Assembly (NCBI GenBank): GCA_044892505.1
Contig: CM097883.1
Coordinates: forward strand, 334,614,001-334,678,000
Direction of reading: 5' to 3'
Length of the DNA stretch: 64,000 nt
From: Schmidtea nova
Lineage: Eukaryota
The notes under the pieces are model-generated. The model was not told the DNA's origin and searched no databases. It was given only the letters and a program-made list of their open reading frames with translations. Made by a program: the position numbers and the translations under genes. Positions 26,961-49,275 of the stretch are shown here, in pieces; the stretch's first letter is position 1; each line of letters opens with the position of its first letter.

Positions 26961-27111
26961 AAAGCTTGTCTACTCTATCTTACTTATTGTCCAATTGCTC
27001 CCTTTCTCATTTATTTTAACTATTTTCTCATTTAAATTAGCAATACCTTTATCAATGAAGGTATCGCTCCAAACTCTGGCAGAATTTGAGATGAGGTAAG
27101 ATTGTAATTCA

Positions 27112-27459
27112 TGCTGCTGTGTTGGTTTGATGTACAACTGAGATCATTAAGATTTTATACGTTAGGGTGATCTCGCCAACATAAAAACATTCCCCCGCTG
27201 ACACCCATGATGTATCCCTAACTACTCATCATGTTGGTGCTGTGTCAACGTTGTGAAATGACAAGGCAGGTGAGCAACCTTTCGGCTACTATTCCCTTGT
27301 TTATTCACGGGTCCACCACTACCGATAGAAGGTGTCTGTGGATTTCTTTCGGTCCCACTTATGCTCTTTTCCATTGTTCTAGGGTGATCTACTCTTAGCG
27401 CATCTGCAGTTTAAATGAATCCGGGTTTTAGTTACATTCGATTCTCAGACATTCCACAA
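27112..27459 (-). repeat. Terminal 348-bp LTR stub (third copy of the LTR 3' end)
   Basis: Matches 29313-29660 and 55436-55783 (one mismatch seen, at 27117); forms the outer end next to the TSD. Confidence 0.92.
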
Positions 27460-28305
27460 GTCAATTAATGAGAACTCTGCTCCCTACGAGATTTATTTTT
27501 ACGGACGAGAACTATGCTCACTATGATGTTGCGTTTTATGACGAGACCTATGCTCACTAGGATGTTATTTTTATGACGAGACCTATGCTCACTATGAGAC
27601 CTATGCTCACGAACGAAAACTCGAAATATCATCTCTCAGTGGTTGCATGTGTTGCTTCGAGATGTTCCTCTCATTGGTCACTTATGCTTCTTCGGAGAAT
27701 CTATTGTCGTGTTTCGTTAAGTCCTATCTTTCAAGAACTATGGGCAAATCCTTTCTCTTTAGGACCCCTTTTATCATTTCCTTTCTTTCAAGGAATTCAT
27801 TTAACCTCGAGTTTTCCCTTTACTCGGCTCATCTACTACACCCCTTTATTCTGGTATCTATTTATCGACTTCTCTACTTGATTTTACTTTATGCGAGCTG
27901 ATTACGTGCCTTTCATCATCTACCACATTTCTCTACTCATCTTACTCATTTCATTGCTTTCGGTCTTTACTGATCAGTTTATCCTCCTATTTTTATAGTT
28001 TTTCTGCGCGCGCCTAAACCTCGTTGAGTTGTCCCTACCTTTCACCCCAACCAAAATATATAAAAAGATCGCATTGGTCCACTGATGCACGATGTGGTGA
28101 TCAGTCACATCACAAGAGTTTTCCAATATCCGCGATTGGATCCCTTTCTACACATCTCGGGTGAGTTGATCAGTTGGTTCCCCCCAATGGGTGCTTATCG
28201 GACTACTCGTGAGTAGCTCATAATTACTTAGGTCATTTTTACCAAATCATTGTTAAACCCTCATAATTTCAACAACAACTGCACTTGTTCAAAACTTTAT
28301 TTCTA

Positions 28306-28764
28306 TTACAAGTACACTGTTATTTTCTCGGATACGGGAAGGTTGCACATAGGACATCGTTCATTTATTTTACATTCATTACAGAATCGAAAATGCCCAC
28401 ACGGCAACAACATTATCTGTATCTTATTCATTTCACAGATATAACACGTCAGATATTGTCTCGTATGTTCGGTTGTTAGTCTTATCCATTCATCGTGTTT
28501 TGTTGTTAACTGTTGCTCTAGCCTGTGGCATTCGATATTCATTTCAGGGTTGTTTAATCTTTCTCTGTACCATTGATATCGTGTTGCGGTATCCACTGGG
28601 TTCTTATTCTCGCTTATGCTCATTATCATTTCGGCTCTTTCTGTGTTGTTTGTCGGCTCGTGATATCCTCCTACCTCGAGTCGTTTTAGCTTTCTCATTA
28701 TTATCTCCGTTGTCTCGTTGTTTGTTTCGAAAAACGTTTGCATTTCTTTTATTTTGTTCTCCAT
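28306..28764 (-). CDS. 152-aa protein with C-terminal IAP-type C3HC4 RING (copy in duplicated leader)
   Basis: CYIC..IMLLPCGHFRFCNEC..RCPMC..ITVYL; identical translation to 54429-54887. Confidence 0.88.
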   Translation of the reverse strand: MENKIKEMQTFFETNNETTEIIMRKLKRLEVGGYHEPTNNTERAEMIMSISENKNPVDTATRYQWYRERLNNPEMNIECHRLEQQLTTKHDEWIRLTTEHTRQYLTCYICEMNKIQIMLLPCGHFRFCNECKINERCPMCNLPVSEKITVYL

Positions 28765-29288
28765 CCCATGAATGAATTCTCATTAATTTTGTTATCGATT
28801 TTTATTTATTTATTTATCATTCCTATTCTATGGTAGCCCTACTGTTCGGTTTTTGCTGTTCTATTTCGCGCCACTGCGTATCCCCCCGTGTTCTTGAATG
28901 TCGCCCCGACATGATCATTGTTAGTTGCTCACACTCATACCATTTTCATGCACACTTTTCAGCATACTTTTACCTTACGTCATGCATACTTTTCCTCACT
29001 CTCATGCTGTTACTCCACATACTATTCATCATACTTCATTTATCCACATATTTTCACATTCACACTTTCATTCTCATGCATACTTTTATCATGCTCATCA
29101 TTTACTTATTTCACACTCATACTTTTATTTATTATTTTCCAACCCGATTCATTCTTGCTTCAGGACCCTCAAACCCTCTGTTATTCTTTACTTTACTTTT
29201 CCTCGCTAAATTCAATTCATCCCGGTTCATGCGCTCTAAGACTATCCGCCGATATCGAATTCACTTTTTCCCACAAAGATCGATTTAA

Positions 29289-29306
29289 TTCCCGGCTGAG
29301 CCCCCA
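29289..29306 (-). promoter_or_regulatory. Second primer-binding site (tRNA-Pro type) behind the 3' LTR
   Basis: Minus strand TGGGGGCTCAGCCGGGAA, 6 nt after the LTR CA end. Confidence 0.8.
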
Positions 29307-29698
29307 AATTTATGCTGGTGTGTTGGTTTGATGTACAACTGAGATCATTAAGATTTTATACGTTAGGGTGATCTCGCCAACATAAAAACATTCCCCCGCT
29401 GACACCCATGATGTATCCCTAACTACTCATCATGTTGGTGCTGTGTCAACGTTGTGAAATGACAAGGCAGGTGAGCAACCTTTCGGCTACTATTCCCTTG
29501 TTTATTCACGGGTCCACCACTACCGATAGAAGGTGTCTGTGGATTTCTTTCGGTCCCACTTATGCTCTTTTCCATTGTTCTAGGGTGATCTACTCTTAGC
29601 GCATCTGCAGTTTAAATGAATCCGGGTTTTAGTTACATTCGATTCTCAGACATTCCACAATCAAACAAGACAAGTCAAATCATTCGTTTACAATACAT

Positions 29699-30298
29699 TT
29701 ATTTACAATTTAATAACACCGAGGGTCTAATCACATTTAGGAGTTCTTGTTCAGATAGACCACTGAGTAAGTCTACTTCTATTCCTAGGCGATCGGCATA
29801 TGCACGTCGCTCTCTCCGCTTTTTCGCTCCTAAGCGATTCCTTCTCTTTGTTCGTTTTGAGCCTGCTGGAATTGTAGCTGTCACTGCAGTAGCTGTAGCT
29901 ATGGTCGATGCATTCTCCGTTTGGGTGCTCGTAGTCACCGCTATCGTGTCTACCCATCGATTAAAGGTGCTTGCTCTGATCCCGGGGCGCAATTGCTCGG
30001 TGATGAAATCTTGGGTCGACACCTTTAAGTAATTGGCCAGCTCTAATTTCAAGGCTGCAACCTCTCTGGCATATTCATCAGCTACTCGTTCCGCCCTGTA
30101 TCTAGCTTGCAGGATGGACTTAACTCTCTCTGGGTTAAACCATGTCGTCTTGATCCTCTGGTGCTCATCATTCAGCTGTCTTAACCGACTCTCCAGAACT
30201 CGTGAACGCGCCTTATGTTCTCGCGCCTCTTGCTTGAAATCTCTGTCCTTGGTTTCAGTCATGTCTGTAAATATATCATTAATTGTGGTATATGTCAT
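29699..30298 (-). CDS. LTR-encoded 199-aa coiled-coil protein with basic tail
   Basis: Intact sense ORF, identical in both LTRs; similar to ORF 2061-2585. Confidence 0.7.
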   Translation of the reverse strand: MTYTTINDIFTDMTETKDRDFKQEAREHKARSRVLESRLRQLNDEHQRIKTTWFNPERVKSILQARYRAERVADEYAREVAALKLELANYLKVSTQDFITEQLRPGIRASTFNRWVDTIAVTTSTQTENASTIATATAVTATIPAGSKRTKRRNRLGAKKRRERRAYADRLGIEVDLLSGLSEQELLNVIRPSVLLNCK

Positions 30299-30450
30299 TT
30301 GTCTGATCTCTCGGTCATCCTGTCGCCATTAAACAACTCCACCTTATCATCATGCTATTCTTATACACTCGAAAACAAAACAAGACCGTTCTCACACAAA
30401 TACATATATTTTTATATCTACGACAATCATTCTAGTTCGGGTTGTGTTGA

Positions 30451-31086
30451 TCAACTGAATGCTCTCAATTCCTGATCCGCAGTATGTTCATCGCGACGAA
30501 TTCCATTCTCCCAATACATTTCCGGGGCTGGGTTCCAACTCAGTTTATCTTTGTAGATAAACACCTCCCAGAGGCGAAGCTCCTCGAGCTCGGGGTGTTG
30601 TTCTAATGACACGCTTCCTGGCGCGTTGGAGTAGGCGAAGACTTCCTCAGTGTAGCGACACCGAGGCCTGTCTAACAGCGTGTATCCTAATCGATGAAGA
30701 GCCCTTCCCGTCATCATTTCATTACTCAATAACCAACGGGGTCGTTGCTGTCCATCGAGGAATTGATAGAACCATCGGTCGGTTCTTGGTTCGGCAGGGT
30801 CCAAGGTGGACATCCAATCGGGGTCTCCTTCCCATCGTAATTGTATCGTGAAGGCGCAAGCCGGAATATCGGCGGCTGCACTCATATGATGTCTTATCCA
30901 CCGGCGTAGGTGTCGACGTGCAATTTCGCTAATTCGGCGGGGAGCTTCTGTTTCTCCCTCGATGGTAGGGTTCCTCTTTGGCCGGATGATGGAACGGGTA
31001 CGTCGTTTTCTCTGGATGACATAATCCTCCACGTTCATATGTCGAGAGTCGATCAGATCCGTTTGGTATCCTTCTGTCTTTATCAT
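30451..31086 (-). CDS. LTR-encoded protein of unknown function (about 211 aa from the likely ATG at 31086; ORF track calls it from 31236)
   Basis: Intact sense ORF in both LTRs; ATG preceded by CTAAC...TTATCTTCAG|CCACATG. Confidence 0.7.
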   Translation of the reverse strand: MIKTEGYQTDLIDSRHMNVEDYVIQRKRRTRSIIRPKRNPTIEGETEAPRRISEIARRHLRRWIRHHMSAAADIPACAFTIQLRWEGDPDWMSTLDPAEPRTDRWFYQFLDGQQRPRWLLSNEMMTGRALHRLGYTLLDRPRCRYTEEVFAYSNAPGSVSLEQHPELEELRLWEVFIYKDKLSWNPAPEMYWENGIRRDEHTADQELRAFS

Positions 31087-32715
31087 GTGGCTGAAGATAA
31101 GAATTTTGTTAGTGTGATAGATTTGTCGGGTGAGCACAATTATTTGTACCCGTCGACCTACTCGACTTAAGGGTGAAACTCTGTAGGCTTCAGTCGGTGG
31201 TTCAGTGTTAAACCGGCCCGATGTTCGAGATACCATGTAGGTCGTATTTTATTATCATTGGTGGTGAATGCATTTATTCTATTGAGTATACTAGTTGGCC
31301 ACGCATAATTCATCGTGCCGTTTATGATAATTTATTTTTCATCTACGATGATCACTTGACCATTTATTATGTTTGAATGTTATTATCTGCGAGACATTTT
31401 TCGTTTCTATTCACAACAATCATGCTCAATCACTCCTCAGGTTTTATCTCCAAACATCATCCTCAACTACCAATGATCATCTTATCCGGGGAACACGCTC
31501 AATCCCTTACTCATACTAATTTGAGACTGGTCATACTATCGTCTCTTATTATGGGTGTTTACCTCTCATACCTTTCGAGGATTGCAAACGGGTGTTGAAA
31601 AAACATTGTGATTTATTATTAACCTCCGACACTGGTACTATTCGTCTCTTAACTTGTGTTACTTATGGCTCGCATGACCCTACTCTCGTCGTCATCAATG
31701 TCCCTGGTTACATATACCTACCGCTCGTTACGGTATTGCTACGACGTATATCGTTCGGGCTCAATTATCTTTACCTTTCTAGATATCCTATGTGCATTTA
31801 ACCCCTTTCCGTTTACTAAGTATTTAGTAAACCTATGGTCCCGCCGCATCAGCACCTCACATGGAAATGTGTTGTGCTGAGAGGCCCAAGAATCCGTCAG
31901 GCTGTTAGGCCTCCGGAAAACCTTATTGATTTTAATATGATTATAAAATTATGAGGGTTTAAACACATCAATAACATAACTCCAAATTACCTTTTATTTC
32001 CAATTCGGTTTTACAATGTCTTCCGTAAAAGTGACTGTTGTACTGATTTACCTTCAGTAAAAATGGCATTGTCAAATACTGATTTGACTTCAGTATTTAT
32101 ACTCAACCGGTGTTGTTGGTTAGCCAATCAGCATCGAGTATGTGTGTATGTTTGCTTCATTTTTTCATGTTGTCGGCTTTTTGCTGCCTAACTTAACTCA
32201 CCGATTTATTTGGTTAATCATGCGGTAAGTTTATTTTTTGTATGATTTAATTTTTATTTGATTTTGCTTTAGCTCTTCGGTGACATCCGCCCACGCGCTG
32301 TCATATTCAGATTTTATCTGCTTCGCATGAGTGAGTTCTTGAGTTTTATTTTGTTTTGGTTAATACTTTATTTCTTTTAGATGTTGCCGCTCATTTTGTT
32401 ACGCTTTGGTGTTGGTAATTTATTTTGTTGTTATTCTGTTGTAAATTTATTTTATTGATTGTATATTATTTTCAGATGCTGCTCGATTTGGCTGGCCCAA
32501 CATCACTCGGGGTCCCCTAAAATTGCGTCCCGCAATTACATGCATATACCTACATCAACATACATAAAAAGTTCGTGACAGAACTTACATGCAAAACCGC
32601 ATAAGGTGGTAGCTTTCATACGCATTTATACAAAGTCACACATTGTCATTGTCATGTTGATATTGTTTTTAGTTTATACACAGTTCAATGTTTCTGGCTC
32701 ATAGGGGTTCGATTC

Positions 32716-33240
32716 TCAGGTCCTTTCACTGGTTGACTGCATTTCGTATCGGGCTTGGATTTGTCGTAGATGGCTTCTCATTCTTTGTTGGGTTTTTGCT
32801 TCTCTTTTGGCGCATCTACACATTATCATTTGTTGTTGTTTGAGGCTTCTGATTCGGTACAGGGTATAGGTAATCACGATGATCAGGATGATTGTCAATA
32901 TTGTCATTGTGACTATTCCGACGATGATCCATCTGTTTCGGATTTCGGATTCGATTTGGGTTTGACCTTTGATTGGCTTTAGATGATCTTGAAATGTTCT
33001 ATGGACTTCTCGGATCTTCTCGATTTGATTGAATAGGGTTTGTAAGGGCTTGCGATGATCATGACTGATCCGCATTTGTCGGATTAATTGTTTCAAGTCT
33101 TCTCTGACTTCATTTAATTGTTTTTCAATCTCTTGGGATATCTCGTTCGACAGGGCTCTTTGTATTTCGGTTGTTGAACAGTTCATTATTGTTGTAGTTA
33201 ACATAATCGTTAGGATTGGTAGGGTTTTGAGCCAGTTCAT
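32716..33240 (-). CDS. 174-aa predicted type I membrane protein (signal peptide, helical ectodomain, TM, basic tail)
   Basis: MNWLKTLPILTIMLTTTIM N-terminus; WIIVGIVTMTILTIILIIVITYTLY hydrophobic segment; basic C-terminus with CRC. Confidence 0.8.
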   Translation of the reverse strand: MNWLKTLPILTIMLTTTIMNCSTTEIQRALSNEISQEIEKQLNEVREDLKQLIRQMRISHDHRKPLQTLFNQIEKIREVHRTFQDHLKPIKGQTQIESEIRNRWIIVGIVTMTILTIILIIVITYTLYRIRSLKQQQMIMCRCAKREAKTQQRMRSHLRQIQARYEMQSTSERT

Positions 33241-33314
33241 TTCTGATTATTCTACTGATTAATACCTGTTACATCGATTTGTACATTTCTTACACACGGA
33301 TTTTTCGCCTCTTT

Positions 33315-34475
33315 TTACACGCCCGTTTCCTCTGGTTCATGGAACCCTTCATCTTGGAGCTCCATTGGTGGTGGTGGTATAAACGGTAACCACACCACTC
33401 TACTTCTCCACATTGCGATTTCATCTTGATACGTTCGAGAGATTTGTATCTCTTCATCTAGCAGATACTCCATATAGTCTGATTGTTCGCTCAGAGTTTC
33501 AATTTGTCTTTCCATCTCCTCCACTTTTCTCTTCAGGGCTTCTACTTCTGTAGGTTCGGTTTCTACTTCTATGGTTTCCTTCTCTGCTTTCAGGGTTATT
33601 ATCTGCTGTTTCAGCTCCTCATTTTCTTTCGTCAAATTCGTTATGTTTTCCTCATAAGCTCGGTTTGATTCCGCATGTCTTTCTTTCACTGCTTTCAACT
33701 CCATTTTCTTTTTGGTCACTACTCCTTGGTAGCCATTTACGTCTCTTTCCAGACTTTCTTTTTCCCTGATCAACTTTTGTCTTTCCGCTTCCTCTTTCTG
33801 TCTAATACCTCGCATTTCTCCATTTATCATCTGTATTTGCCATTGCGTTTTCTTTAGTTCCTTTGCCTGTTCTCGAATAAATCGCTGTCGTTTTCGACTC
33901 CATTCTTTGTTTGCTTGTTCTTGTCGCTTTCTCTGTTCCAATTCCTCTTTCAATTCGTCTATCTCTTGATACAATTTCCAATCTTCGCTGTGTGCTGTCC
34001 TTCTGATTATCTCTTTGGCTTCTTTATACACTCGTTTCGACTCCATCTTCCAATGTCTCGCTTGAGCCTTGATTGCTAGTATTTTTACCTCCATCTTTTC
34101 CTCTTGTTTCTCCCTCTCTTCTCTTCGCGTTTTCATCATATTTTTATAATGTTCTGCTTGTTTCCTCATCAACTGATAGACCTCTTCTATCTTCTGTCGA
34201 CTTCGTACATTCGTTCCTTTTAGCTTCTCTATTTGTGTTGTCAGTTGTATCATCTCTTTATTCACTTCCTCGAGTTCTAGTTGATATAGCTCCATTCGTC
34301 TTTCGCATTTCAGTTTCTCGTAGAAATTGTTTGTCATCACTTCGTGTAATTCTCTGGTTCTTTGTTCTACTTCCACTTTATATCTCTTTTCGATTTCTCT
34401 TTCTATTGCTTCTCGTTCGTTCGCCATCTCGTTTCTCGTTTCATCTTCGATTACATGTTCATTTGCGTTTTCCAT
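33315..34475 (-). CDS. 386-aa long coiled-coil protein
   Basis: Intact ORF, E/K/R/Q-rich heptad character, no recognisable catalytic motif. Confidence 0.8.
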   Translation of the reverse strand: MENANEHVIEDETRNEMANEREAIEREIEKRYKVEVEQRTRELHEVMTNNFYEKLKCERRMELYQLELEEVNKEMIQLTTQIEKLKGTNVRSRQKIEEVYQLMRKQAEHYKNMMKTRREEREKQEEKMEVKILAIKAQARHWKMESKRVYKEAKEIIRRTAHSEDWKLYQEIDELKEELEQRKRQEQANKEWSRKRQRFIREQAKELKKTQWQIQMINGEMRGIRQKEEAERQKLIREKESLERDVNGYQGVVTKKKMELKAVKERHAESNRAYEENITNLTKENEELKQQIITLKAEKETIEVETEPTEVEALKRKVEEMERQIETLSEQSDYMEYLLDEEIQISRTYQDEIAMWRSRVVWLPFIPPPPMELQDEGFHEPEETGV

Positions 34476-34564
34476 TCTGTAATTTACAAATTTACACTTG
34501 TTATACTATATGTTTATTGTTGTTGTCGATTTTTATACTTTATTTACAGGGTCGTTCACTCTGA

Positions 34565-35977
34565 CTACTCTAACAATCCTTTCGTTGACTTCGTGTTCAT
34601 CACTGTTGTACTTGTTTTCTTTTCGATCTCCAACTCTACATATAAGTTGTCGTCGTACAACATTTCCCACATTGTTTGGTGTGGTATGAATTTTGGTTCT
34701 CCCGTCGCTAATGAACATTCTGTGGTTGGTCTTTTGTAAGCTTCGTGCTTACCATCAATTTTGAATACTCTCGCTATTGTTTCTTTCGAGTTTTTCACTC
34801 TCATTATAGCCTTTGTTTCTAGTGGCCATTCTAATATGTCGTCGTAACCACCTTTACACAACGCAAAGAATAATGACACATGCGTTTCCTTTCCTGATCC
34901 ATCTCCATTTGGATAAATTCTCATCCGGACTTTGTATCCGTTTTTCCACAGATAGAATGGTGGACTTGTTACCGACACTTGACTTCCTGCTTTTGCTGCT
35001 GTGAACTTTTCGTTGAAGTTCTTGATTTTCCATATATATGGTGCAACAGGTAAACTCTCGATATCCTCCGCATCTCGTATCCACATTTGATGTCGCACGT
35101 TTACTTCTTTTACCAATGTCTCTATGACTTTGATTTTCTCCATCATTTTCTCTCTGGTGAGCTCGAATTGCTCTCTCGTTTCCAGTAATAACTCCGTCAT
35201 TATCCTCTGAGATTCAATTTCTTTTCCCAGTTTCTGTATGGTTTGCTCCATTCCGTTCAAATTTTCTGTTAACATCTCGGCGTGTTGTACCGTTTCCGTT
35301 TCCAAATGCTCTTTCATCTCTTTGCTCGTTTTCTTTACTGCACATCCTTGTTTACTCCATACGCACTTTCTTGGTCTTGATTCGCATTGTTCCCAATGTT
35401 CTCTCAACATCACTTTTTCTCCGGTTCCACAATTACTTGGACAAATTCCTCTGAATTTTCCGCACACTTTCTCTTCTGCTACGTTGAGATGTTCTGTTTC
35501 GATTACTTCTCTCGTCTCTCTTTGTTCGCAGTATTGACACTCTATTATCTCTGCTTTGCACTCCTCCTTGTGATTTTTCGACTGCTTGATGGTTATCATC
35601 TGTTGACACTTTTCACATATCACTTTCTTGTTTTCGCATTTTCCCAGATGTTGTCTTAGCTCGATTATTTGTCCTTTCCACTCGCATGGTTGGTTTATAC
35701 ACTCTGTTTTTATCTTCCAGATCTCCTTTTGTATTGCTTTGTCTGGTTTAGTCTCGTTGATTAGTAGTTTATCGTCACACTCTGGACACTTTCTTGTCTC
35801 ACTTTCACTGATTATTTGTAATATACACTTGGTGCACATCCTGCATCCACATTCCGTTTGCCTCGGTTTTAACAGTAGATTTTTACACTTTACACACGTC
35901 ACATTTACTCCCCATTGTCGATTTTCTCTTCTTAGAATCTCGATCGTTTGGTAATCCGCTTCGCTTTCTGCTCTCAT
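34565..35977 (-). CDS. Full-length intronless TRAF-family protein (RING, TRAF zinc fingers, coiled coil, MATH/TRAF-C)
   Basis: CVKC..LLKPRQTECGCRMCTKC..CPEC; CEWKG..HLGKC; YIWKIKNF..SPPFY..GYKVRMRIYPNGDGSGKETHVSLFF..YDDILEWP. Confidence 0.96.
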   Translation of the reverse strand: MRAESEADYQTIEILRRENRQWGVNVTCVKCKNLLLKPRQTECGCRMCTKCILQIISESETRKCPECDDKLLINETKPDKAIQKEIWKIKTECINQPCEWKGQIIELRQHLGKCENKKVICEKCQQMITIKQSKNHKEECKAEIIECQYCEQRETREVIETEHLNVAEEKVCGKFRGICPSNCGTGEKVMLREHWEQCESRPRKCVWSKQGCAVKKTSKEMKEHLETETVQHAEMLTENLNGMEQTIQKLGKEIESQRIMTELLLETREQFELTREKMMEKIKVIETLVKEVNVRHQMWIRDAEDIESLPVAPYIWKIKNFNEKFTAAKAGSQVSVTSPPFYLWKNGYKVRMRIYPNGDGSGKETHVSLFFALCKGGYDDILEWPLETKAIMRVKNSKETIARVFKIDGKHEAYKRPTTECSLATGEPKFIPHQTMWEMLYDDNLYVELEIEKKTSTTVMNTKSTKGLLE

Positions 35978-36067
35978 TCTACAACAATATTTACATCAAT
36001 TTCCCCATATTTTTGATTTTTTCTGGTTCTTTATTTACACGTATTTACACAGTTTTCCGCTTATTCA

Positions 36068-36418
36068 CTATACATCCTCAGTTGAATCTGGCTCTGGATA
36101 CACGTCTATCTCATTTACAATCCAGCTCGTCCAACTATCCGGTATCTCTTCCTCTTCATGTCTCGTTAATCGGTCAATTTCCTCTGCTTGCCAGTTGTTT
36201 ACTTCATTTAATGTTCGATTCTCGTTCTGTAATTCGTTTATCTGTAGTTGTTGGATCTCGATTTTGTTCATTGCTTCGAAGTTACAGTTATAACTCTCGG
36301 TTAATAATTGCGTTTTGGCCGTCAACTGGCTCTGTAATTCATTTACTGTTCTGGCTAGCAGGTCACATTGTACTTTCCATCTTGTCATCATCGACATCTC
36401 TGTATTTTCTTGATTCAT
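36068..36418 (-). CDS. 116-aa short coiled-coil protein
   Basis: ATG-to-stop ORF co-oriented between pol and TRAF with short spacers. Confidence 0.65.
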   Translation of the reverse strand: MNQENTEMSMMTRWKVQCDLLARTVNELQSQLTAKTQLLTESYNCNFEAMNKIEIQQLQINELQNENRTLNEVNNWQAEEIDRLTRHEEEEIPDSWTSWIVNEIDVYPEPDSTEDV

Positions 36419-36541
36419 CGTTTTCCTAGATTATATACATCATTCTCTTTTTTCTGGTTTTATGTTTAATAATATTTATACCCATACGTATACGGTTATG
36501 CATTGGTTTTTACACTATTATTTACACTCATATTCCACCCT

Positions 36542-39500
36542 CTATACAATCACCACTGGTTTTCCTTCGTACAGTTCTTCGTCCTCGATCTGTACCCACA
36601 TCTCTTCGTGTTTTGATCGTCTTTTCAGTTCTTCTCGTACTGCTTTTGGTAGTTTTATGTTGTAGTTTGTGACCTTTACGTCCGGCCATTTTACTGCTAT
36701 GGTCTTATTCCTCATGCCATATCTCCAACAGACTATCATGATCGTTATCAGTGGTATACACCCTATGAATACCCCCATGCTGATTAATCCCATTATTGTT
36801 TTTCCAATGTTCATCTTCGGAGTTTCACTTTGGTTTATCATCACGCCATATTGACCTTTCCATTCCGCTTCCCATTGTTCGTATTGTTGTTGTCTCCGTC
36901 TGACTTCTTCGATCACTTTCTCTGGTTCCCATCTTTCTTGGCGGTTTGGTATTGTTTCTTCCGTCTCGGTTTGTTCTCTCTTCACACTCAATTCTCGGAA
37001 TTCTAACTTTCTGATTCTCCTCGTTATCGTTGTGTTCCTTGGCGTGTAATAGGTGTCGCACCTTTCCTGTGGATTTCCTTGTGCGTCCACTTCTTCGATT
37101 GCACACACTTCGTATTCTGCGTTTGTTTTCAACTTCCTCATTTCTACCTCGATTATTTCTCCTTTATCATTTGATGTCTTTTGACAGTTTCGTGGGGACT
37201 TTCCCATACTGTTTGGCATTAATGTCCAACAGATTTCTAGGACCTTTTTATGGATCTTCCATATTATCAGAGTCGTTGATTCTGGTTCGTTTTCTATTGT
37301 CGTCCCTTCTGTTGTTGTCTGTTGAACTCTCTGACTGTTGGTTGTCGTGGTCCTTCTTGACTTTCTTTTCCTCTGTCGACTTCCTCCCATTTCAATCGTT
37401 CTCGTACCGTTAATTTGCTCTGGCGTCTTGTACAGTTTGCACTCCAGGCTTCTTTGTATTATTTCTCTTATTCTTCGGATTACGCAAATTTCGTAGGCTT
37501 GTCCGACTTCGAATCCATTTAGTTGAAACGGGATTCCTCGTTCTCTCGTTTTGCATTGCGGTAGTACGTGACTGGTCGATGCTCCGATGTATTTTCTCCA
37601 ACACATCCCAATTGTTCTCCGACCAATGTTTTTTATCTCTACGGTTACTACTTCATTCGCAATCGTTTCTTGATCTTGTTTCTTTCTTTTTGGGAATTCA
37701 ATTATCTCCTTTGCTTGGAACACTTTACACTCGCTTGTGCCTGGTCTGTTTCCGTTTGCTGCTTTTTCCATGAGGCATAGTTCACATGTTTTCTCTGTTT
37801 CCATTTCAGTTATCTCGATTTCCTCGTTTGTCTCTGCCTCTCGACTTTCTCTTGTTTCGCTGATTCCAATTACTTCATTGTTTCGTCCCCAACATCTTCC
37901 ATTCGTTGTTCGTTGGTCTTGGACATTTACTAACGTCATCACGCTGATATCTATGTCTTCCATGATTCTCTTAATGAGGATTAATATTAATGCTACACAT
38001 ATCAATTCTGGTTGGAATGTTAATTTTCTCGCTGGATTTTTGGTTATTCTTTCTTTCTCTGTTCGGTTTCTGATTCCTTCTTCTGCTTCGGTTTGATTCT
38101 TCCCTTTCTCTGATTCCACTTCTGTTCTTCCCGTTGTCTCTTCGCTTCTTTTCCCAATCCATTTCTGTATTTTCAGCGCTTCTGTTGCTTTATATAATTG
38201 ACATGCAGTTACTTGAGGTGCTTTTGGTTCTCCTCTCTGCTTTATTGCGCATATTATGTATGACTTTTCTTTCTCCAACCCTTTGATTGGGATGACGTCT
38301 CGCTTCAAATCTGACAATATACACTTCAGCGTATCGTTTTTCCTCAGGTTTTCTTTCCAGCATATTCTTTCGTATACTTCGTTTCCTCTGATTATTTCCA
38401 GCGTGACGTATTGTTTCTTGGCTTCTCCTTGTCCGATGATTGTTATCAATATCGCAATACACAACATTTCTGGTCTCAAAAGTAGACTTCCTGTTCGTTT
38501 TCCATAGTTCGTACTTTCGTCTTTTGTTCCACTGTTTTCTCGTTCTTCGGCTTCTTCTTTTTTGTCGTTTTTCGTTGGCTTCGGTTCTTCTTGTCTTTCT
38601 TTTTCATTATTCTCTGTTCTTTTGTTGTCATTGTCTTCGTTGTTCTTTTCGTTGTTACTTTTGTCGTTGAAGTCTCTGTAACCACCCCCTGGTCCTTTGA
38701 AAATGTCGTCCTCGACATTAATTTCTTCAATCAATCTTTCATACGCTTGGACCGCGAGTGTGCTAGACTCGAATTCCCGTATTTCCATGTCTTTTGATGG
38801 TTCTATGTCTTTTAGTCTACTTTGCTTGATCGCTTCTTTGGCATTTGCCCATTCATTCACATATTTTCTGAACAAGTCTTTCCATCTTCCCATTCGTTCC
38901 TGTTCCTTTGAGTTGTTCGTAAATTTCAAATCTCTTCTCTTCAAGAATTCTTCTACTATCTCTGGCTTTTTGTGTCTTAATAACGCGCTTCTGATACACC
39001 AATTCTGATTCTGTTCCATATGGTCATTGATCTTGAACACTGGTTCCTTGGTTATCGGATTCGCCCATGTTAGTAATGCTCTTGTTTTCTCTATGTCGTG
39101 TATCATTACTGTTAGACTGAAGTTCTTTACGTTATTCGCCAGGTATTCGATATCGTCTTGTTTCTTGATGGACTTTATGAACTTGATCATCTCGAAGTTG
39201 TTCCACTGTATTGCGATGTCTATGATGGAATTATTCTTTCCATTTTTCCCTTCGATTTTTGTTCCTGCTTCGTATAACTCGTTTAGCACTTTGCAGTTCG
39301 TCTTCTTCCTCGCTGCGATTATCATGATTGTATCTCCGTTATCATCAACCGTGTTCATGTCTGCTTCGCATTTGACCATCGCTTTCGTTATTTCCAGCAC
39401 TTCGTTTTCTTTCTTTCGACGTAATGCCCAGTGTATCGGCAATCTCCCATCCTTTGATAATAGGAATGCTACTGGCATTTGATTTTTGATCGTTTCTATG

Positions 39501-42500
39501 TCACTCTCGTTATAATCTCCTTGTGCGTATCTGTGTAATTTCTCTGTAATTGCTCCTAGTATCTCCAACGAGTTTTTATTCTCTTTGAATTCCGATAATC
39601 TTTCTTGCGCTTTTGCTACGATTGCGTCTAATCTCTCTTGATAATCGGCTTTTGCATTGAACAACACTGCTTTGCTTCTTATTTGCGTTTGCATCTGTTT
39701 CATTCGTTGGTCTTGATACACTGCTTGTCTGAAGAACTGTCCATATTTCAATGCTTCTATCAGCTCTTTATATCGCTTGCTTATTTCTTTGTGCTGCGTT
39801 TGGATGTCATAGAAATGTTCGAAGCTCATATCCGGATTCCATTGTTTATCACACCATCTCTTGATTAATCCGATTAATTCTTTTTTTCTGTCTTCCAACT
39901 TGTATTCTCTTGGGTTTTCGCTAACCCGTAACGTATCTCTCGCTATCAACACTGCAAGTGTTTTTGGATCGTATGTTACCTCTAGTAGATGTTTCAGTAA
40001 CGCATTTTCTCCCCTTGTGAATACTTCATTACAATCTATGACCCATGAATCTCTTTCTGGTCGTTTCCACTTTAACAGTATTCTCCAGGTTTTACTGTTT
40101 CTTACTCCGATTGCTTGTTTCATGATTGATCCTCTGGTTATTTCATCGATTTCCCACGTGGCATTTTCCGTGATATACTTCAGTATTCGGTGATTCGCTC
40201 TGTCAATTGCATGATTCAAGAATGTTCGTCCTTCTTTATCTTTTGTCATCCAACTTGATCTGGTGTTTCCGAATAGTTTGACTATTTCATCATCTCTTCC
40301 ATGAATCGTCATCATCATGAGTGGAGTGATTCCTTCCCAATTCACTTTGTCAATTTCTCCTCCACCTTCGAGTATCATCTCTACGATCTCTTTCACTTTT
40401 TCGTTTCCACTGTGCTTGATTGCATTGTGCAACGCTGTGTTACCGTCTTTGTCTTGTAGATTCAATGTTTGAGGGATTTCCTCTAGCAGCGTTCTTGTTA
40501 TTGGATGCGCTGATCTGTCTTTTGCATACTCCATTACATTTTTCCGCACTTCTGCCAATATATTGAAATCGAGCCACCATTTCCATTCTGGTATAAGTTC
40601 TCTGGTCTTCTTTGCCAGTTCTTTGATATCTATTGCTTCTCTTCGGTTGTCTTCTAGACTTGTTAGCGGCTTTTGTTGTACTCGCAACATACTGATTCTC
40701 GCCGTCTGTGATCTTGTCATCACCCGTTTCTCTGGTGATAGAGTTGCTGTCTTTGGTATTTTTCTGCATCTACATGCATTCACGTATATTGGTCTTACCA
40801 CTGGATTGTTCACCAATCGTACTCTCACATTATTTTCGTTTACTGTTGTTATTTCGTATGGCCCTTTGCCTGGTCGTTGGAGTTTCTTGACTGTACCGGG
40901 TATTATCTCTGGTGTCTCGATGATCACCCAATTTCCAACTTTTAAATCATGTGCTTTCACATTCTTTTTCTGATCATGTAGATCCTTGTAACTCTCTTGA
41001 TAGAACTTGATGTTCAGTTCCGCCGTTTTCCAGATTTCTTGCATTCTTTCTTTGAACTTCGTCACGTAATCGTCAACCTCCATGTACTGTGATAATGGTG
41101 GTTGATATTCTAAATCAATCGGTAAGTTGCAATCTCTTCCGTACATCAGTTGGAATGGACTTAGCTTTGTTGCCGCATGTATTGACATTCTATATGCCAT
41201 TAAACACAGGTTTATATATTCGTCCCAGTCAGTCTGATGTTTGCTGACGTAATTTGACAACATGCGTATTAGCGTTCCATTGAATCTTTCTGTTTGACCG
41301 TTCGTTTGTGGATGGTATGGGGATGTCCGTAATTTCGCAATTCGGAAGTAATTCGTAACTTCGTCCAATATTTCACTCATGAAATTTGTTCCTTGATCCG
41401 TTAGGATTTTCTTTGGTGTTCCGTATCTGCAGCATATCTCTTCCACCAATATTCTCGCGACTGTTTTCGCTTTTTGATCCGGTATTGCGAACGCTTCTGG
41501 GAACTTTGTTAGGTAGTCCGTGACTACTAATATGTACTGATTTCCTTTTAAACTTTCTGGCAATGGTCCAACTACATCCATTGCTATCGTCGCCATTGGT
41601 TCTGCAGGTATTGGCATAGGTTTTAGTGGTGTTTTCCACTTCGTTCCGACGTTCTTTCTTGTTGCACAGGTTAAGCAGTTCTTTATCCATTCTTTCACAT
41701 CATCTTCCATGGTTGGCCAAAAATACTTTTGTCTCAATCTCCCGATTGTCTTTTTCGCTGACATATGTCCGCCTAATTTTCCGTCATGATATTGAGTCAT
41801 GATTTCCTTTCGCCTATTCGCAGGTAAGCACATCAATCTTCGTTCTCCATCTTGTATCAATAACCATCCTTTTTCCATCACATATCTATGTTGATATTTC
41901 TGCATATGTTCGCGCAACGTTTGGTTCTTGCCGAATATTTCTATTTCCCTTTCTTTCAAATACTTGCTGATCAATCCCAACTCCTCGTCTTCGAGTTGAT
42001 CTTTCCTTAATTCGCTGAAATCCAAATCCTCCGCTATTAATGCACATATTTTCAGAGCGTTTAGGTTCACCAATTCTGGGAATGTAAATCTTGACATGCA
42101 ATCTGCGTTTGCATTTGCTTTTCCTGCTTTAAACTTTATGAATGGCGAGTATTCCTGTAACTGCATCGCCCAACGCATCAATCTACTTGACGATTCTTTA
42201 TGTTGGCCTAACCATACCAATGGTTGATGATCCGTCGTGATATATATTTCATGACCCCACAGTAGGTATTTGAAATGCTTGATTGCCAATATTATCGCAT
42301 AGGCTTCTCTTTCCGTGACTGAGTAATTCCTTTCATGTTTCCTGAATGTTCGACTGTAGTACCCAATTACTCTTTCCTTGCCTTCTTCATCGAATTGGCC
42401 TAGTACTGCTCCTGCTGCGTATCCACTTGCATCTGTTGCCAACAAAAATGGCTTCTTAAAATCTGGATGGACCAATATTGGTGCTGTAATCAGTTTGTCT

Positions 42501-45500
42501 CGTAATGTCTCAAATGCTGCTTGTTGTTCTTTTCCCCATATAAACGACACATCTTGTCTTACCAATTCTTGCATTGGCTTTGATATTCCTGCATAGTCCT
42601 TGATAAACTTTCGATAATATCCACACAATCCCAAAAATTCTTGTATTTGCGTCACTGTCTTTGGTGGTGGACATTCTTTGACTTTTTCGATATTCCTTGG
42701 ATCTGGTTCTTTTCCTTTTGCTGATACAATGTGACCTAAGAATGTCACTTTCTCTTTTGCCCAATCGCACTTTGACGGCTTCAATTTCAGTTTCCACTGT
42801 CTCAATTTCACGAACACATTTCTGATATCTTGCAGGTGATCTTCGAATGTTGCGGAGTAGATCAATAGATCGTCAATATACACCATGCATTGTTTTATGC
42901 CATGTGTTACGAAATTCATGCATCTCTGGAATGATGCTGGCGCGTTTGTTAACCCAAACGGCATTTTCTTGAATTGGTACAGATCTCGTCCGATTGTAAA
43001 TGCTGTCTTCTCTTTATCCTCGTCTTTCATTTTGATCTGCCAATATCCGCTTTTTAAATCCAGTGACGTGAAATAGGCTGCTCCTTGTAACGTCAACAAC
43101 ATTTCGTTTATGTCTGGCAGTGGGTACGTATCTCTTTTCGTAACTGCGTTCAACCGTCTGTAATCGATACAGAATCTCTGAGTTCCATCCTTCTTTTTCA
43201 CCATCACCACCGGGAATTGCCAGGGTGAGCAACTGGGTTCGATGACCTCTGCATCTAACATCTTTTGTACCTCTTCTTCTGCCACTGCTTTTTGAGCTTC
43301 TGCCAATTTATATGGTCGTAATGCGATTGGCGTTTCGTCCGTCAACGGTATCGTATGTAATGTTACATCACATGTTCCCAAATCCAAATCTGATGCTGCG
43401 AATATATCTTTATATTCCATCAACAGTTTCTGTAACTGTTCTTTTTGTCGTTCGTCTAACAACACACTGTCGATTTTCCATGGTGATTCGCCTTTGCTTT
43501 TCTCATTCTTGTCTGGTATTTCGATTTCGGACATGGGTGTTAATTTACCCAATCTCTCATTCTCGTATATTATCTTGTCCTCTTCGTCGAAATTTACCAT
43601 ATTAATTGGTATCTCACCTTCTTGGTTTATGGTGACCAGTTCTCTTGCCATTGGTAATTCTATCTTTGCTTCGAACTTTTTACTTGGTTCGAATATCATA
43701 TCCCCCTTTATTGTTGAATCGATCTTGACATAGCACATCATTTCGTGCCTCGCTGGTACTACTATTTGTTCTGCACTTGCCACTTTAACTTTCATTCTGC
43801 AAATTTTTCCTGTTCTATCTTTTAATTTCATTGCTCCTAGATCGATTACGATCTCCTTGAACAGGTCTGGCATCAGGTCAGTTCCAATAATACATGGTAC
43901 ACTCAGCGATGGTATTACAGCGATGTACGTGTTGATTTCTGCACCTCGATGCTTAATTTTTACAAACCATCTTCCGGCTACTTCTACTGTCTCCTGACTG
44001 CACGCGATTACATGTACGTTTGTCTTTTCTATTTCTCTTTGGTTTTTCTCTGGTATATAGTTGATGTCGATCGCCGAAATATTCGCGCCTGTATCGATCA
44101 TGGCTTCAATTTCTCTTCCGTTTATTTCTACGGCTGTTGTTAAAATCGGTCCCATATTTGTGGACATAACTGCTATCGTGTGCGTGTCTTCCAACGAGTC
44201 TACACTTCCACCTCGTTTTACTTTGCATCCTTCTGGAATTATCGGGTATATACTGGTCATCGGCATCATCTGCATCATATTCGGCTTCGCTTTGTATATC
44301 GGTTCGTTATACATTGACTGAGGTGGAGCGCTGTATCTCCAATTCTCAACTGCACTCTTTTCGTTATACTGTAGAATCTGGTTTATATTCGCTTGTCCTC
44401 CTTGATCGTCATCGTCATCCTCATTGCTTGAGTCATCCTGTGTTCGATATCCCCTCACTCTTTCCCATAATCCTTTCCTTTCTTTCTTTAGTTGTCGTCT
44501 TGCTTGCTCGTCTTGCATTATCTTTTTGAATTTCCTTCCAACATCTTCATTTGTTCCTTTCATTTTCGCAAGTATCTTCAACAATCTTTTTATTCGATGA
44601 ATGTCTTTTGAGTGTCCATGCAACACCATCGTTTTCGCAAGGAATGGTAAGAATCCTACTACCATTTTCCAATTCACTTTCTTTTCTCTCTTGTAGATGT
44701 CGAAACACGCTAACATTTGCGTTATTATCACTCTGACGATTTGTATTATCAATATAACACCCAGTATTTCAGCCATCATTTGTCCGAATATCAGGAATCT
44801 TCCCCACATTGCCTTCATCATATTTTCCGTGGCTTTCTTGAAATGTGCCGGTGACAACAGCAGTTCGTAATTCGGTCCTTCTCGATAATTCGTTCCTCCC
44901 GTTATCGTTACGATATTTGACAGTAATGCTTCTCTTCTTGCCGGGAATAATATATTCTGCCTTGCCGCTTCTAAATCTTTTGGACTATAGATTCCGTTGT
45001 TTGAGACATCTACGTCGCTGAACTGTCTATCTTTCGATAACTGCATCAGTTCAAATTCTCTTGGTGCTAATACTTCGGTTCTTCCTGGGAACATAACCCA
45101 TTTGCCATCTGGTTTCTGATAAAGCGGTCCGTACGCATTACTACAGTTGAACGGATTTGGTTCAAACCCTGGTGGATTGATGATTCTCGTCACCGGTTGA
45201 ACATATCGTACTTTTCCTTTGTAATCGATTTCTAGTTCGTTTGTACATTGTCCAGGTTTCAACTGCGTTGTTGCTGCTAGCGATGCGTGTGTCTTTTCGC
45301 AAATGTATACATACATTGCTTCTCCAACCACTCTTCCGAAATGTCCTTCTCTCAGTGGTAATAACGGCATCGCGCTATCTGGATTCGTAATCGCTACGGC
45401 CAACTTTGTCTTTAATATTTCCCGATTCAGTATACAATCGTTGTTTATCAGATCGTAGTACACTTTTTGCAATGAGGCTTGACCTCTATGGAATAAGAAA

Positions 45501-46774: not shown

Positions 46775-47195
46775 ATTGTATATCGTATACGAGATTGCTA
46801 CCAGATATTTGCTGTCCGTCTGCTCCGTTAAGTAGTCTTTTTATTAACATCGTGGTTCCTTGCCAATCCAGATGATTCGATTTTGTTTTGGCTTTTATCA
46901 ATTCTGGCATAATCGGTGCTATTGCATTGTGTAGCATCCTTGCCTTTGTACTAGGTTCGTTTATCCTCCACAAATTCTTTAATTCCGGGTCGATTATCGC
47001 CAACACATCCATTATCGTTTTGGTGAGCCATTCTTCTCCTTGACAGACTTGATTCTCCTCTTTTCCTCTGATTTCTGCGATTTTATCCAGTTTCTTCAAG
47101 CAAATCTCCCATTGCTCTTGTCTCCTTTCTTCCCTTGTCTTTGGGATTGTTGTTGCTGGATCTATCTTTGGTCTTCCTCTTGGTCGTTTCTCCAT
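46719..47195 (-). CDS. 158-aa ORF with AT-hook (KRPRGRPK) and N-terminal half of a Bcl-2-like domain; +1 shift joins it to the polyprotein
   Basis: Overlaps the polyprotein frame; removing one A from the A5 run (plus strand T 46838-46842) fuses the two. Confidence 0.6.
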   Translation of the reverse strand: MEKRPRGRPKIDPATTIPKTREERRQEQWEICLKKLDKIAEIRGKEENQVCQGEEWLTKTIMDVLAIIDPELKNLWRINEPSTKARMLHNAIAPIMPELIKAKTKSNHLDWQGTTMLIKRLLNGADGQQISGSNLVYDIQFANAKPRESEVKSDGKTY

Positions 47196-47256
47196 TCCAG
47201 TTCCGGTTTCTACAAATCTCGTTGCTCTTCCTGTTTCTTCTGTAACATCTCTTCCT

Positions 47257-48459: not shown

Positions 48460-48525
48460 TCTGATGACATGTATTGTCTGATAATTATCCCATATGCCGA
48501 TTTTATACGCTCGTCTTTTGTCACG

Positions 48526-49275
48526 TTAATTCAGTAGATGTTCTTTGTATTTTATAGCGATGTCATCCTCGAATTCATCTTCCCGTTCTCGTTGTAATAT
48601 CGTCTCATTGATGACATCTACTATTTCTCCCACTTTACTATCTGGTATTACCTCAATTTGTCTTGTCTCTTCGTTCGGTAATCTCACAGTAATCTTCAGA
48701 TCTGATACCTCTCCTCGTTTAAACATTTCTTTTCCCATCTTTGCAATTAGCTTGTCCGTTTTGAAATTCGAATGCCTCGTTTGACTTGTATCTCGTATGT
48801 TCTCGATACACTGTTTCAAATTCTCATACTCGCTTTTCGTCAATTCCTTTCGATGTTTCTTGATTTGTTGGATGATCTGTTCTATCATCGTATTCAAATT
48901 CTCTGCTAAGATTCTTTCCTTTGCCTCTAGCAACTGAGGTTTTATTCTCATCTCATAACACGTATTCGCTTCTTTGACGATTCCTTGTAAGTTCTCTTCC
49001 TTCTTGGTGTTGCATATAGATAACGTTGTTATTTCTCCTGGCCAGATGCCTGTATCTATCATATGCGTTCTTTTTCTTACCAATCCGTTTTCTGAGTATA
49101 TGAATTTGTCTTTGTACGAGCTTCCCAATCTGTCCTCAACCCATCGATATATTCCATCCGTCATTGGGTTCTTTATCCAGATTCTCGGTGAACACTCGTT
49201 TATCCATATTTGTATTACGTATTCGTTCAGTGGTTCTTTCAATAACTTCTCTATGAACTCTTGTATTACTCTCAC
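48526..49275 (-). CDS. 249-codon ORF after gag; ubiquitin-like domain runs across its stop codon
   Basis: LKITVRLPNEETRQIEVIPDSKVGEI..IKYKEHLLN*RDKRRAYKIGIWDNYQTIHVIR; GTG start overlaps the gag TGA. Confidence 0.65.
   Translation of the reverse strand: MRVIQEFIEKLLKEPLNEYVIQIWINECSPRIWIKNPMTDGIYRWVEDRLGSSYKDKFIYSENGLVRKRTHMIDTGIWPGEITTLSICNTKKEENLQGIVKEANTCYEMRIKPQLLEAKERILAENLNTMIEQIIQQIKKHRKELTKSEYENLKQCIENIRDTSQTRHSNFKTDKLIAKMGKEMFKRGEVSDLKITVRLPNEETRQIEVIPDSKVGEIVDVINETILQREREDEFEDDIAIKYKEHLLN

Follow-up and report, generated by a model that had tools for sequence, protein, structure and literature searches.

The window (the whole 64-kb stretch of DNA that was analysed) contains a 31,514-bp Burro-like LTR element on the minus strand (27112-58625), with a 3,190-bp LTR at either end. 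The 5' end of the element is normal. Outside the 3' LTR lie 1,849 bp of the element's own PBS and leader, with the RING gene intact, followed by the last ~350 bp of the LTR again. This extra sequence amounts to 2,201 bases in a unit whose normal size is 29.3 kb. No N occurs anywhere in the element, and no tRNA gene was found within the 64-kb window; the PBS is presumably of the proline type. In element sense, the features are as follows.

58626..58629, plus strand: TTCA, right copy of the target-site duplication (TSD)
55436..58625, minus strand: 5' LTR, 3,190 bp, TG...CA, from self-alignment and family termini
53587..55435, minus strand: original 6-nt spacer, PBS and leader (its first 1,849 bp), donor of the extra copy
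54429-54887, minus strand: original RING ORF, 152 aa, in the donor leader
32503..55435, minus strand: internal region, 22,933 bp, with further ORFs besides the three that follow
49272-51446, minus strand: Gag-like ORF with CCHC knuckles
36542-46735, minus strand: 3,397-aa ORF, fusion glycoprotein-PR-RT-RNase H-IN-ankyrin
34565-35977, minus strand: RING/zf-TRAF/MATH ORF
End of the internal region, minus strand: conserved block at the PPT position, immediately ahead of the 3' LTR
29313..32502, minus strand: 3' (now middle) LTR, 3,190 bp, with four differences from the 5' LTR and ORFs of 261 aa and 199 aa without Pfam match
27464..29312, minus strand: extra spacer, PBS and leader copy, 1,849 bp, two differences from the donor
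28306..28764, minus strand: second 152-aa C3HC4 RING ORF, intact, protein identical to the first copy
27460..27463, minus strand: junction, unique in the genome
27112..27459, minus strand: LTR stub, last 348 bp, one private difference at 27117, its CA being the integrated end
27108..27111, plus strand: TTCA, left copy of the TSD

Limits of the LTR and of the insertion

The 5,039-bp alignment of 27464-32502 to 53587-58625 is gapless and contains six differences, two in the leader part (at 27642 and 28768 in 1,849 bp) and four in the LTR part (at 31186, 32066, 32169 and 32450 in 3,190 bp), the same counts as in an earlier note on this DNA. The stub is equivalent to 29313-29660 and 55436-55783, gtca (27460-27463) separates it from the leader copy, and that copy ends 6 nt past a 35-bp tandem array (27470-27594). 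Together with the family termini, this alignment bears out the three-LTR-end architecture and the true LTR length of 3.19 kb proposed in the note. The 1,849 bp that it called leader are correct in length and include the 6-nt spacer and the PBS; its 348-bp stub also stands, with a single difference of its own that had been overlooked. The stub contains the conserved last-250-nt block of the LTR. A depth peak at 27163-27366, considered as open chromatin at a promoter, falls on these same 250 nt, which show the highest conservation within the LTR (0.92-1.0) and occur in sister families too; no conclusion was drawn from it.

Across the family, LTRs are 3.0-3.4 kb long. They start with the same TG at 30/30 LTR-start loci and terminate with the same CA at 30/30 LTR-end loci, where either the same spacer and PBS or unrelated host DNA comes next. 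The 5,039-bp repeat terminates in AT, not CA, and motif-checking tools would therefore likely reject it as an LTR, although the note expected automated tools to report LTRs of this length. A 4-bp TSD is present in 9/9 full copies and 6/7 solo LTRs, and the chance of a 4-mer match at the flanks is about 0.007. As a proxy for the empty site, paralogues of the host repeat were compared, and 27/29 of them join both flanks directly. TTCA is therefore a true target-site duplication, as the note had supposed, and the locus represents one insertion with its TSD intact and without loss of host DNA.

A unique junction with a donor in cis

The 28-mer spanning the junction occurs once in the 1.25-Gb genome with up to 2 mismatches allowed. 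The extra leader is 99.9% identical to the element's own leader, and the next-best copy reaches 95% (40 of 606 candidates scored). Because the junction is unique, the next-best leader is so much less similar and family LTRs measure 3.0-3.4 kb, the extension is a single-locus duplication from the same element. Judged from these identities, the donor can confidently be placed in cis. The four junction letters, whose position the note gave correctly, are readable from adjacent LTR sequence: they match a 9-mer with a single occurrence in the LTR, 14-18 nt ahead of the point where the stub begins. In one reading the LTR is followed from -366 and slips by 13 nt between two TTGT repeats; in another it is followed from -352 and one base is added. 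The junction microhomology is 1 nt. By its letters, then, the join is neighbouring LTR sequence and not random filler.

We considered whether the 2.2 kb might be an assembly echo of the 5' end in what is truly a normal allele. No contig piece crosses 27459/27464 among the 32 listed of 2,470, which is no evidence either way, and an identical leader copy in a sister family ends at an N stretch. However, each leader copy here carries one substitution that none of the family rows shows (34 and 44 rows), new letters templated by the LTR are present at the junction, and the element is free of N. One contig (X1, 27065-27147) also joins host to stub without a difference, although it may be the assembly's own source and its span does not reach the inner junction. 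Misassembly is thus highly improbable.

Recombination between two neighbouring insertions, or a family trait in the form of a 5-kb LTR with an inner PBS, is extremely improbable. In plants, recombinant complexes outnumber other three-LTR types (PMC1950507), but the TSD is intact with no host loss, and other copies fall well short of the donor's identity. Neither a PBS-like 18-mer nor leader sequence was found inside any of 37 whole family LTRs (0/37), and this and the unique junction rule out both a family trait and an amplified mini-unit. One 5,768-bp "LTR" in the LTR survey is explained, from its coordinates, by a separately deleted copy at C2:66.42-66.45 Mb, where two PPT junctions belong to that copy and a full one. 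The note had also inferred an LTR-PBS-RING-LTR mini-unit, which is not supported as a mobile one, and had suggested looking for inner PBSs in the LTRs of other copies and for independent LTR-RING-LTR insertions; neither turned up, in the 37 whole LTRs and in the genome-wide junction search respectively. Ahead of the stub only 2/25 bases match the family PPT-position block, the stub begins with TT and not TG, and its junction is present once.

Extended 3' ends elsewhere in the genome

At 2/100 other PPT-LTR junctions (100 listed of 139 exact PPT junctions; on the PBS side, 100 of 126 exact PBS junctions), the LTR end runs on into PBS and leader. The leader at both loci breaks off within 1.2-1.5 kb (1,451 and 1,182 bp, counted from the end of the LTR); no intact dimer is present at either. 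At C1:497.79-497.82 Mb, the 1,451-bp leader copy has 0 differences and is joined by 1 nt of microhomology to 1,266 bp that exactly repeat host DNA lying 28 kb upstream of the element. Copied upstream host DNA is beyond reverse transcription; the sequence reads as serial template switching on the chromosome. A stub is absent there, and a candidate TSD after the copied tract was not supported (one paralogue compared). The third extended locus, cut at both ends, is unexplained. These features of the two loci count against the copy-and-return origin proposed below for the present one. A sister-family case at C1:160.71-160.74 Mb, with 3,984 bp of leader without differences and six differences between its LTRs (p 0.008), was left out of the counts as a possible assembly artefact, since it runs into a stretch of 500 N.

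Among 52 distinct LTR ends, a full LTR lies upstream in 48, the stub of this element in 1 and diverged relatives in 3. What looked like a second stub at C1:544.31 Mb proved to be a diverged relative with only the conserved end in common, and three LTR starts at C1:224.36-224.37 Mb are one solo LTR multiplied in a 2.1-kb satellite. The internal region is 22-23.5 kb long in 51/74 family copies and shorter than 22 kb in 13/74, meaning that large deletions are common.

Origin of the extra sequence

We favour, as a fairly probable explanation, that the 2,201 extra bases postdate the insertion and stem from a single copy-and-return event on the chromosome, that is, one-sided strand invasion or a fork switch into the 5' LTR followed by end joining. 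Where the 3' LTR had broken or a fork had stalled in it, the proximal end would pair with the homologous 5' LTR, on the same chromatid, the sister or the homologue. The new strand would then extend across the end of the LTR, the PBS and 1,849 nt of leader and halt next to the tandem array. What was left of the original 3' LTR (~350 bp) would be rejoined to it by end joining of the microhomology type, the junction being templated locally. The overall route would be SDSA plus end joining, or its replication equivalent, with no deletion required. SDSA followed by end joining with templated junctions has been shown at induced breaks in Drosophila, according to the accessible part of the report by Chan, Yu and McVey 2010 (PMC2895639). 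Both of its marks, a tract from a homologous template and a microhomology or locally templated junction, are found here.

The genuine TSD, complete host DNA, cis donor, unique junction, templated junction letters and normal 5' end all speak for copy-and-return, as do the two other extended 3' LTRs with their short leader tracts and, at C1:497.8 Mb, a further template switch. A further point concerns age. No significant age difference exists between the parts without a post-hoc boundary (p 0.71-1), so the similar age that the note claimed for the two duplications is compatible with the counts (2/1849 vs 4/3190; p=1 by Fisher's test). All four LTR differences nevertheless fall in the first 1,317 nt of the LTR (p 0.03-0.05), a weak hint that the extra copy is younger than the insertion. 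Against copy-and-return, LTR nt 1318-2842 are without differences (p 0.046); a break exactly at the stub start predicts some there, so copy-and-return requires either a long tract of conversion or a switch at an earlier point.

The note had proposed a deleted tandem dimer or an aberrant strand transfer, which we retain as rivals; it had not considered a single chromosomal copy-and-return event, which fits best. For the dimer, unequal 3'/5' LTR exchange (or recombining in of circular cDNA) would produce LTR-int-LTR-int-LTR within the same TSD, and a later 23.9-kb deletion would remove most of the second unit. Since this yields the same sequence product as copy-and-return, with the TSD kept, the window alone cannot tell them apart. 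A crossover anywhere beyond nt 1317 would account for the 5' clustering of LTR differences. LTR-LTR recombination looks frequent in this genome (537 LTR starts vs 139 PPT and 126 PBS junctions; solo LTRs), deletions are common, and three-LTR complexes (PMC1950507) and, in the accessible parts of two further papers, multi-LTR complexes (PMC7215508, PMC4079214) are known. However, two rare events are required, and intact dimers number 0 among the 100 PPT junctions listed of 139 vs 3 truncated cases, although their lack may be an assembly effect (26-kb units). All three truncated cases end in the first 1.85 kb of the 22.9-kb region (5e-4 if uniform, a rough figure), and the C1:497.8 Mb case requires template switching anyway. 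A deleted dimer is thus a serious rival, though a less likely origin.

Normal reverse transcription does not yield leader past the 3' LTR, as the note correctly stated. An error of reverse transcription, in which minus-strand strong-stop DNA jumps to leader position 1,849, is copied to the RNA 5' end and makes a second, normal jump before one-step integration, would leave the TSD intact and the three parts statistically similar in age, as observed. Template-switch complexes with TSDs have been described (PMC1950507). The stub start also lies 25-43 nt past an AATAAA kept in 49/50 LTR ends, in a GU-rich stretch near a possible R/U5 border, but a second AATAAA (-194, 46/50), within the block of highest conservation, would serve equally well as a poly(A) signal. 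The simple form of this route should extend both ends, whereas the 5' end is normal; moreover, no other stub at this position exists among the 52 distinct LTR ends, and the C1:497.8 Mb extension copies upstream host DNA. We therefore regard this route as doubtful.

Consequences for the element and its family

The structure amounts to a scar at a single locus rather than an element of a new kind, and neither a new replication mode nor a new mobile unit is shown. It is likely a dead end. Normal transcription would still terminate in the middle LTR and yield copies with the usual 3.2-kb LTRs, the only gain being a second RING gene behind a full LTR.

It is quite improbable that the locus is a caught intermediate of giant-LTR growth and gene capture. 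The stub still has the final 250 nt of the LTR, a conserved block with the AATAAA at -194 (46/50 copies); if R lies within it, an RNA that reads through the middle LTR into the stub would carry R at either end as well as PBS and PPT. Daughters would then have LTRs of 5.39 kb that enclose a PBS and the RING gene, and 3' LTR extensions (~2% of copies) would be raw material for gene-bearing 3-5 kb LTRs. No daughter element was found (junction once in the genome), nor a relic PBS, LTR end or leader in any of 37 LTRs. The locus would matter more if extended ends were copied into daughters, which would explain gene-bearing giant LTRs.

More generally, repair or fork switching may use very long, young LTRs as templates and in this way add a copy of an element's start, including an intact gene, to its end. 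Since 2/100 other 3' LTRs listed of 139 have such extensions, automatic LTR lengths and ages of giant elements need a check for an inner CA plus PBS.

Comparison with known systems

Burro (GYPSM1) elements are giant Gypsy-like LTR retrotransposons of planarians, and the accessible part of their description (PMC6431247) gives a size of about 29-31 kb, with an internal region of up to 25 kb, that also applies here. Both share the PR-RT-RNase H-IN order in one ORF (RVP 868-957, RVT_1 1179-1337, RNase H 1400-1529, integrase 1638-1809), a fusion glycoprotein in frame ahead of PR (PF24664, 341-682, E 1.6e-66, same ORF), and ankyrin, MATH/TRAF, RING and CCHC Gag. In that account, however, Gag is the N-terminus of one ~4,900-aa polyprotein, whereas here it is a separate ORF. 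Burro also has BIR, BCL2, dUTPase and SUMO, for which the 11 ORFs here gave no Pfam hit (E<=0.01; Pfam is less sensitive than the HHpred of PMC6431247). Because the Gag ORF is separate and BIR, BCL2 and dUTPase hits are absent, we call the element Burro-like and not Burro1-4. The accessible Burro text describes no extended 3' end such as the present one. The literature search, mainly of open-access papers and not including the primary Burro paper, listed no structure of LTR, PBS, leader and stub.

Complex (three-LTR) elements comprise recombinant and template-switch types (Sabot and Schulman 2007, PMC1950507), and multi-LTR Cassandra (PMC4079214, PMC7215508) is grouped with them here. Like the template-switch type, this element has an inner LTR with a PPT before and a PBS after it, a flanking TSD and near-identical outer ends (stub 1/348 differences). 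That type, however, has two complete internal regions and three complete LTRs; here the second unit is only 1,849 bp plus 348 bp, a 1.85-kb leader without PPT and the end of a third LTR, at a single locus and not amplified. Recombinant complexes have no TSD and take their outer LTRs from separate insertions, which is not the case here.

TRIM and LARD mini-elements consist of LTR, PBS, a short internal part and LTR end, a form that the extension resembles. Absent here are a PPT, a complete second LTR, a TSD of its own and any independent insertion elsewhere. Both kinds of mini-element are named in PMC1950507 and PMC4079214.

The limited tract and the microhomology join with templated bases resemble products of repair or template switching. 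FoSTeS/MMBIR-type switching likewise copies a limited tract from a homologous template and joins by microhomology with locally templated bases. SDSA with end joining in flies does the same, going by the accessible part of PMC2895639, although there it acts at induced breaks, whereas here only the end product is available to suggest it, and the ectopic template would be the 5' LTR of the element itself.

Architecture of the element

When the window is compared with itself, a single long repeat emerges: 27464-32502 aligns to 53587-58625 without gaps and with 6 differences. A 348-bp piece at 27112-27459 (the stub) matches the end of both LTRs. The element is arranged as follows:

58625-55436, minus strand: 5' LTR, preceded by the TSD
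between the 5' LTR and the middle LTR, minus strand: spacer and PBS, leader, internal region (22,933 bp), then the block at the PPT position
32502-29313, minus strand: middle LTR (the original 3' LTR)
29312-27464, minus strand: second spacer, PBS and leader, 1,849 bp
end of the element past the second leader, minus strand: 4 nt, the last 348 bp of the LTR, then the TSD

The insertion measures 31,514 bp, a normal copy plus 2,201 bp. This architecture is real in the assembly and was correctly described in the earlier note, made from sequence alone, whose coordinates and counts all hold. The spacer separating the LTR end from the PBS (55430-55435 and 29307-29312) is 6 nt, longer than usual, and constant in the family. 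The block preceding the 3' LTR is not purine rich (14/25), and the leader contains tandem arrays with units of 84, 19, 35 and 37 bp (52399-52621, 53194-53717).

Coding content

In Pfam searches, one 3,397-aa ORF contains a fusion glycoprotein, protease, RT, RNase H, integrase and ankyrin repeats. Gag-like sequence with CCHC motifs lies in an ORF of its own, another ORF combines RING, zf-TRAF and MATH domains, and the leader carries a 152-aa RING ORF, of which both copies encode an identical protein. No BIR, BCL2, dUTPase or SUMO domain was found by Pfam in the 11 ORFs scanned. Three ORFs without clear Pfam match (212, 400 and 158 aa; 46719-49164) lie between the Gag and 3,397-aa ORFs, where Burro1 has one continuous polyprotein. 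Domain content agrees with the description of planarian Burro elements, except for the separate Gag and the lack of BIR, BCL2, dUTPase and SUMO hits in the 11 ORFs (PMC6431247). The element is classed as Burro-like.

Length and content of the family LTR

Genome-wide, the family's LTR start has 537 matches, while its exact PPT-LTR junctions number 139 and its exact LTR-PBS junctions 126. The terminal base was the same in 30/30 LTR-end loci examined, as was the first base in 30/30 LTR-start loci. In nine full copies the paired LTRs measure 3,158-3,321 bp and show 0-17 substitutions; 4-bp TSDs flank all nine, and 6/7 solo LTRs. Among 37 distinct whole LTRs, 36 measure 2,956-3,383 bp; PBS-like 18-mers, additional LTR ends and leader sequence are absent from all 37. 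Because LTR termini, pair lengths and whole LTRs show otherwise, the 5-kb repeat is not the family's LTR. This 5,039-bp repeat ends in AT, and the 4-mer that follows it is one base off the TSD.

Each LTR carries ORFs of 199 and 261 aa (29699-30298 and 30451-31236, plus the 5' LTR copies), neither with a Pfam match. The 199-aa ORF at 29699-30298 terminates on a conserved AATAAA at -391, kept in 49/50 LTR ends; a second AATAAA at -194 is present in 46/50. The last 250 nt (27112-27362 in the stub) show conservation of 0.92-1.0 over 50 copies, are common to sister families and contain TATAAA (-48, 45/50) and TCAGTT (-30, 49/50) besides the AATAAA at -194, making this extreme end of the LTR a possible promoter. 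Judged from match positions, some copies with normal internal length have LTRs of apparently only ~1.6 kb and appear to form a short-LTR subfamily, including three on C1, a sequence of the assembly searched (G000):

G000:C1:8930744-8932336
G000:C1:16559347-16560931
G000:C1:18912462-18914037

At G000:C1:224356000-224375000, a solo LTR with a 4-bp TSD lies within a 2.1-kb satellite and has been multiplied three times with the array.

Insertion site and source of the extra sequence

Host DNA at the insertion site is itself a repeat, of high copy number (1,601 candidates; 26900-27111 and 58630-58668). Of 40 paralogues scored, 29 were retrieved, and in 27 of these the two flanks adjoin directly with the 4-mer present once. 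TTCA is therefore a real TSD, as proposed previously, the stub's CA marks where the element was integrated, and the host lost no DNA. Recombination between two insertions is thereby excluded.

Allowing <=2 mismatches, the 28-mer spanning the junction has a single match in the genome. Since the best other leader, out of 40 scored from 606 candidates, is only 95% identical, the extra leader was copied from the same element. Relative to family copies (for the two leaders, 34 and 44 rows from overlapping loci), each leader has one private change, the 5' LTR three and the stub one, at 27117; the middle LTR has one change of its own, shared by 4/60 rows. Such private changes are not expected if the extra copy were an assembly echo. 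Among the read-data pieces listed (most pieces fall outside the listing), one spans the border of host and stub with no mismatch and none crosses 27459/27464, so these data speak neither for nor against the inner junction.

The LTR-PBS-RING-LTR mini-unit envisaged in the earlier note is not a TRIM- or LARD-like unit, because no PPT precedes the stub, the stub begins with TT and there is no second genomic copy.

Inner junction and mechanism

The four junction letters (27460-27463) are not foreign: together with those following, they form a 9-mer present once in the LTR, at -366. The junction can be read as leader, 1 nt of microhomology and LTR from -366 with slippage of 13 nt from one TTGT repeat to another; alternatively, it is LTR from -352 plus one added base. 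The leader tract ends 6 nt past a 35-bp tandem array. Polymerase-theta end joining typically leaves locally templated junctions, also after aborted SDSA (PMC2895639); reverse transcriptase slippage could also produce them.

We observe the product and infer every step that led to it. Somewhat favored is a copy-and-return event: after a break or stalled fork within the 3' LTR, its end would pair with the 5' LTR, synthesis would proceed into the leader, and the strand would be rejoined to the remaining LTR end. We lean this way because one event suffices, the TSD is kept, the 5' end is normal and short tracts elsewhere are alike. A dimer followed by a 23,926-bp deletion would give the same product and is a less probable route: deletions are common in the family (13/74 internal regions <22 kb) and assemblers may collapse intact dimers, but two events are needed, and uniform breakpoints would rarely place the ends of all three tracts within 1.85 kb of 22.9 kb (5e-4). 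More doubtful still is a reverse-transcription error, a strong-stop jump into the leader. The stub starts just after the conserved AATAAA at -391 (49/50), which lends some support; however, the simple form would extend both ends, and the other AATAAA at -194 (46/50) makes the R position only putative.

Leader and LTR differences (2/1849 vs 4/3190, p=1) indicate no difference in age, and do not contradict the previously suggested similar age of the two duplications; nor do copied and uncopied sequence differ (2/2197 vs 5/3190, p=0.71). None of the four LTR differences lies beyond nt 1,317 (p 0.029 if uniform, 0.052 on the family profile); with a boundary picked afterwards, the comparison is 5/1665 vs 2/3722 (p 0.033). 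This 5' clustering weakly favors an event that followed insertion and whose point of switching or conversion lay upstream of where the stub begins, and speaks weakly against a break exactly at -348.

Recurrence at other loci

The first 100 listed PPT junctions were compared with the first 100 listed PBS junctions, using exact matches only, over C1 and a second sequence of the assembly, C2, to 202.6 Mb, a range outside which the window lies. Two of the 100 PPT-LTRs continue into LTR end and PBS (95% interval 0.2-7%), and no intact dimer was seen among these 100. Three loci are relevant:

G000:C1:497793219-497815807: full element with internal deletion and extended 3' end
G000:C1:378126222-378132953: 6.7-kb permuted fragment without outer LTR ends, both ends cut
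G000:C1:160706467-160738802: sister-family element with extended 3' LTR

At C1:497.79-497.82 Mb, the 3' LTR is followed by 1,451 bp of the element's own PBS and leader without difference, then by a 1,266-bp exact copy of host DNA that lies 28 kb upstream of the element (C1:497765353), and finally by other sequence that matches C1:498.26 Mb over 246 bp in inverted orientation. Because upstream host DNA is inaccessible to reverse transcription, this multi-switch rearrangement arose on the chromosome, by serial switches; comparison with one paralogue gave no support for a candidate TSD. The fragment at C1:378.13 Mb runs from the end of the internal region through LTR and PBS to a 1,182-bp leader; it may derive from a one-LTR circle of which a piece was captured, or from a dimer cut twice. 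In the sister-family element, left out of the count, the 3' LTR runs into 3,984 bp of identical leader up to a 500-N stretch, reflecting either a real dimer or an assembly effect.

Relation to known three-LTR complexes

It is very improbable that the extended end represents a stage by which LTRs grow and capture genes. Plant three-LTR complexes are described as arising via recombination or template switching (PMC1950507), and such complexes in plant elements are also described in PMC7215508 and PMC4079214. Within the limited literature covered, no partial form like the window locus was found. The locus represents such a partial form of a three-LTR complex, with its TSD intact; the rearrangement is of a known kind, affects a single locus and is weakly recurrent.
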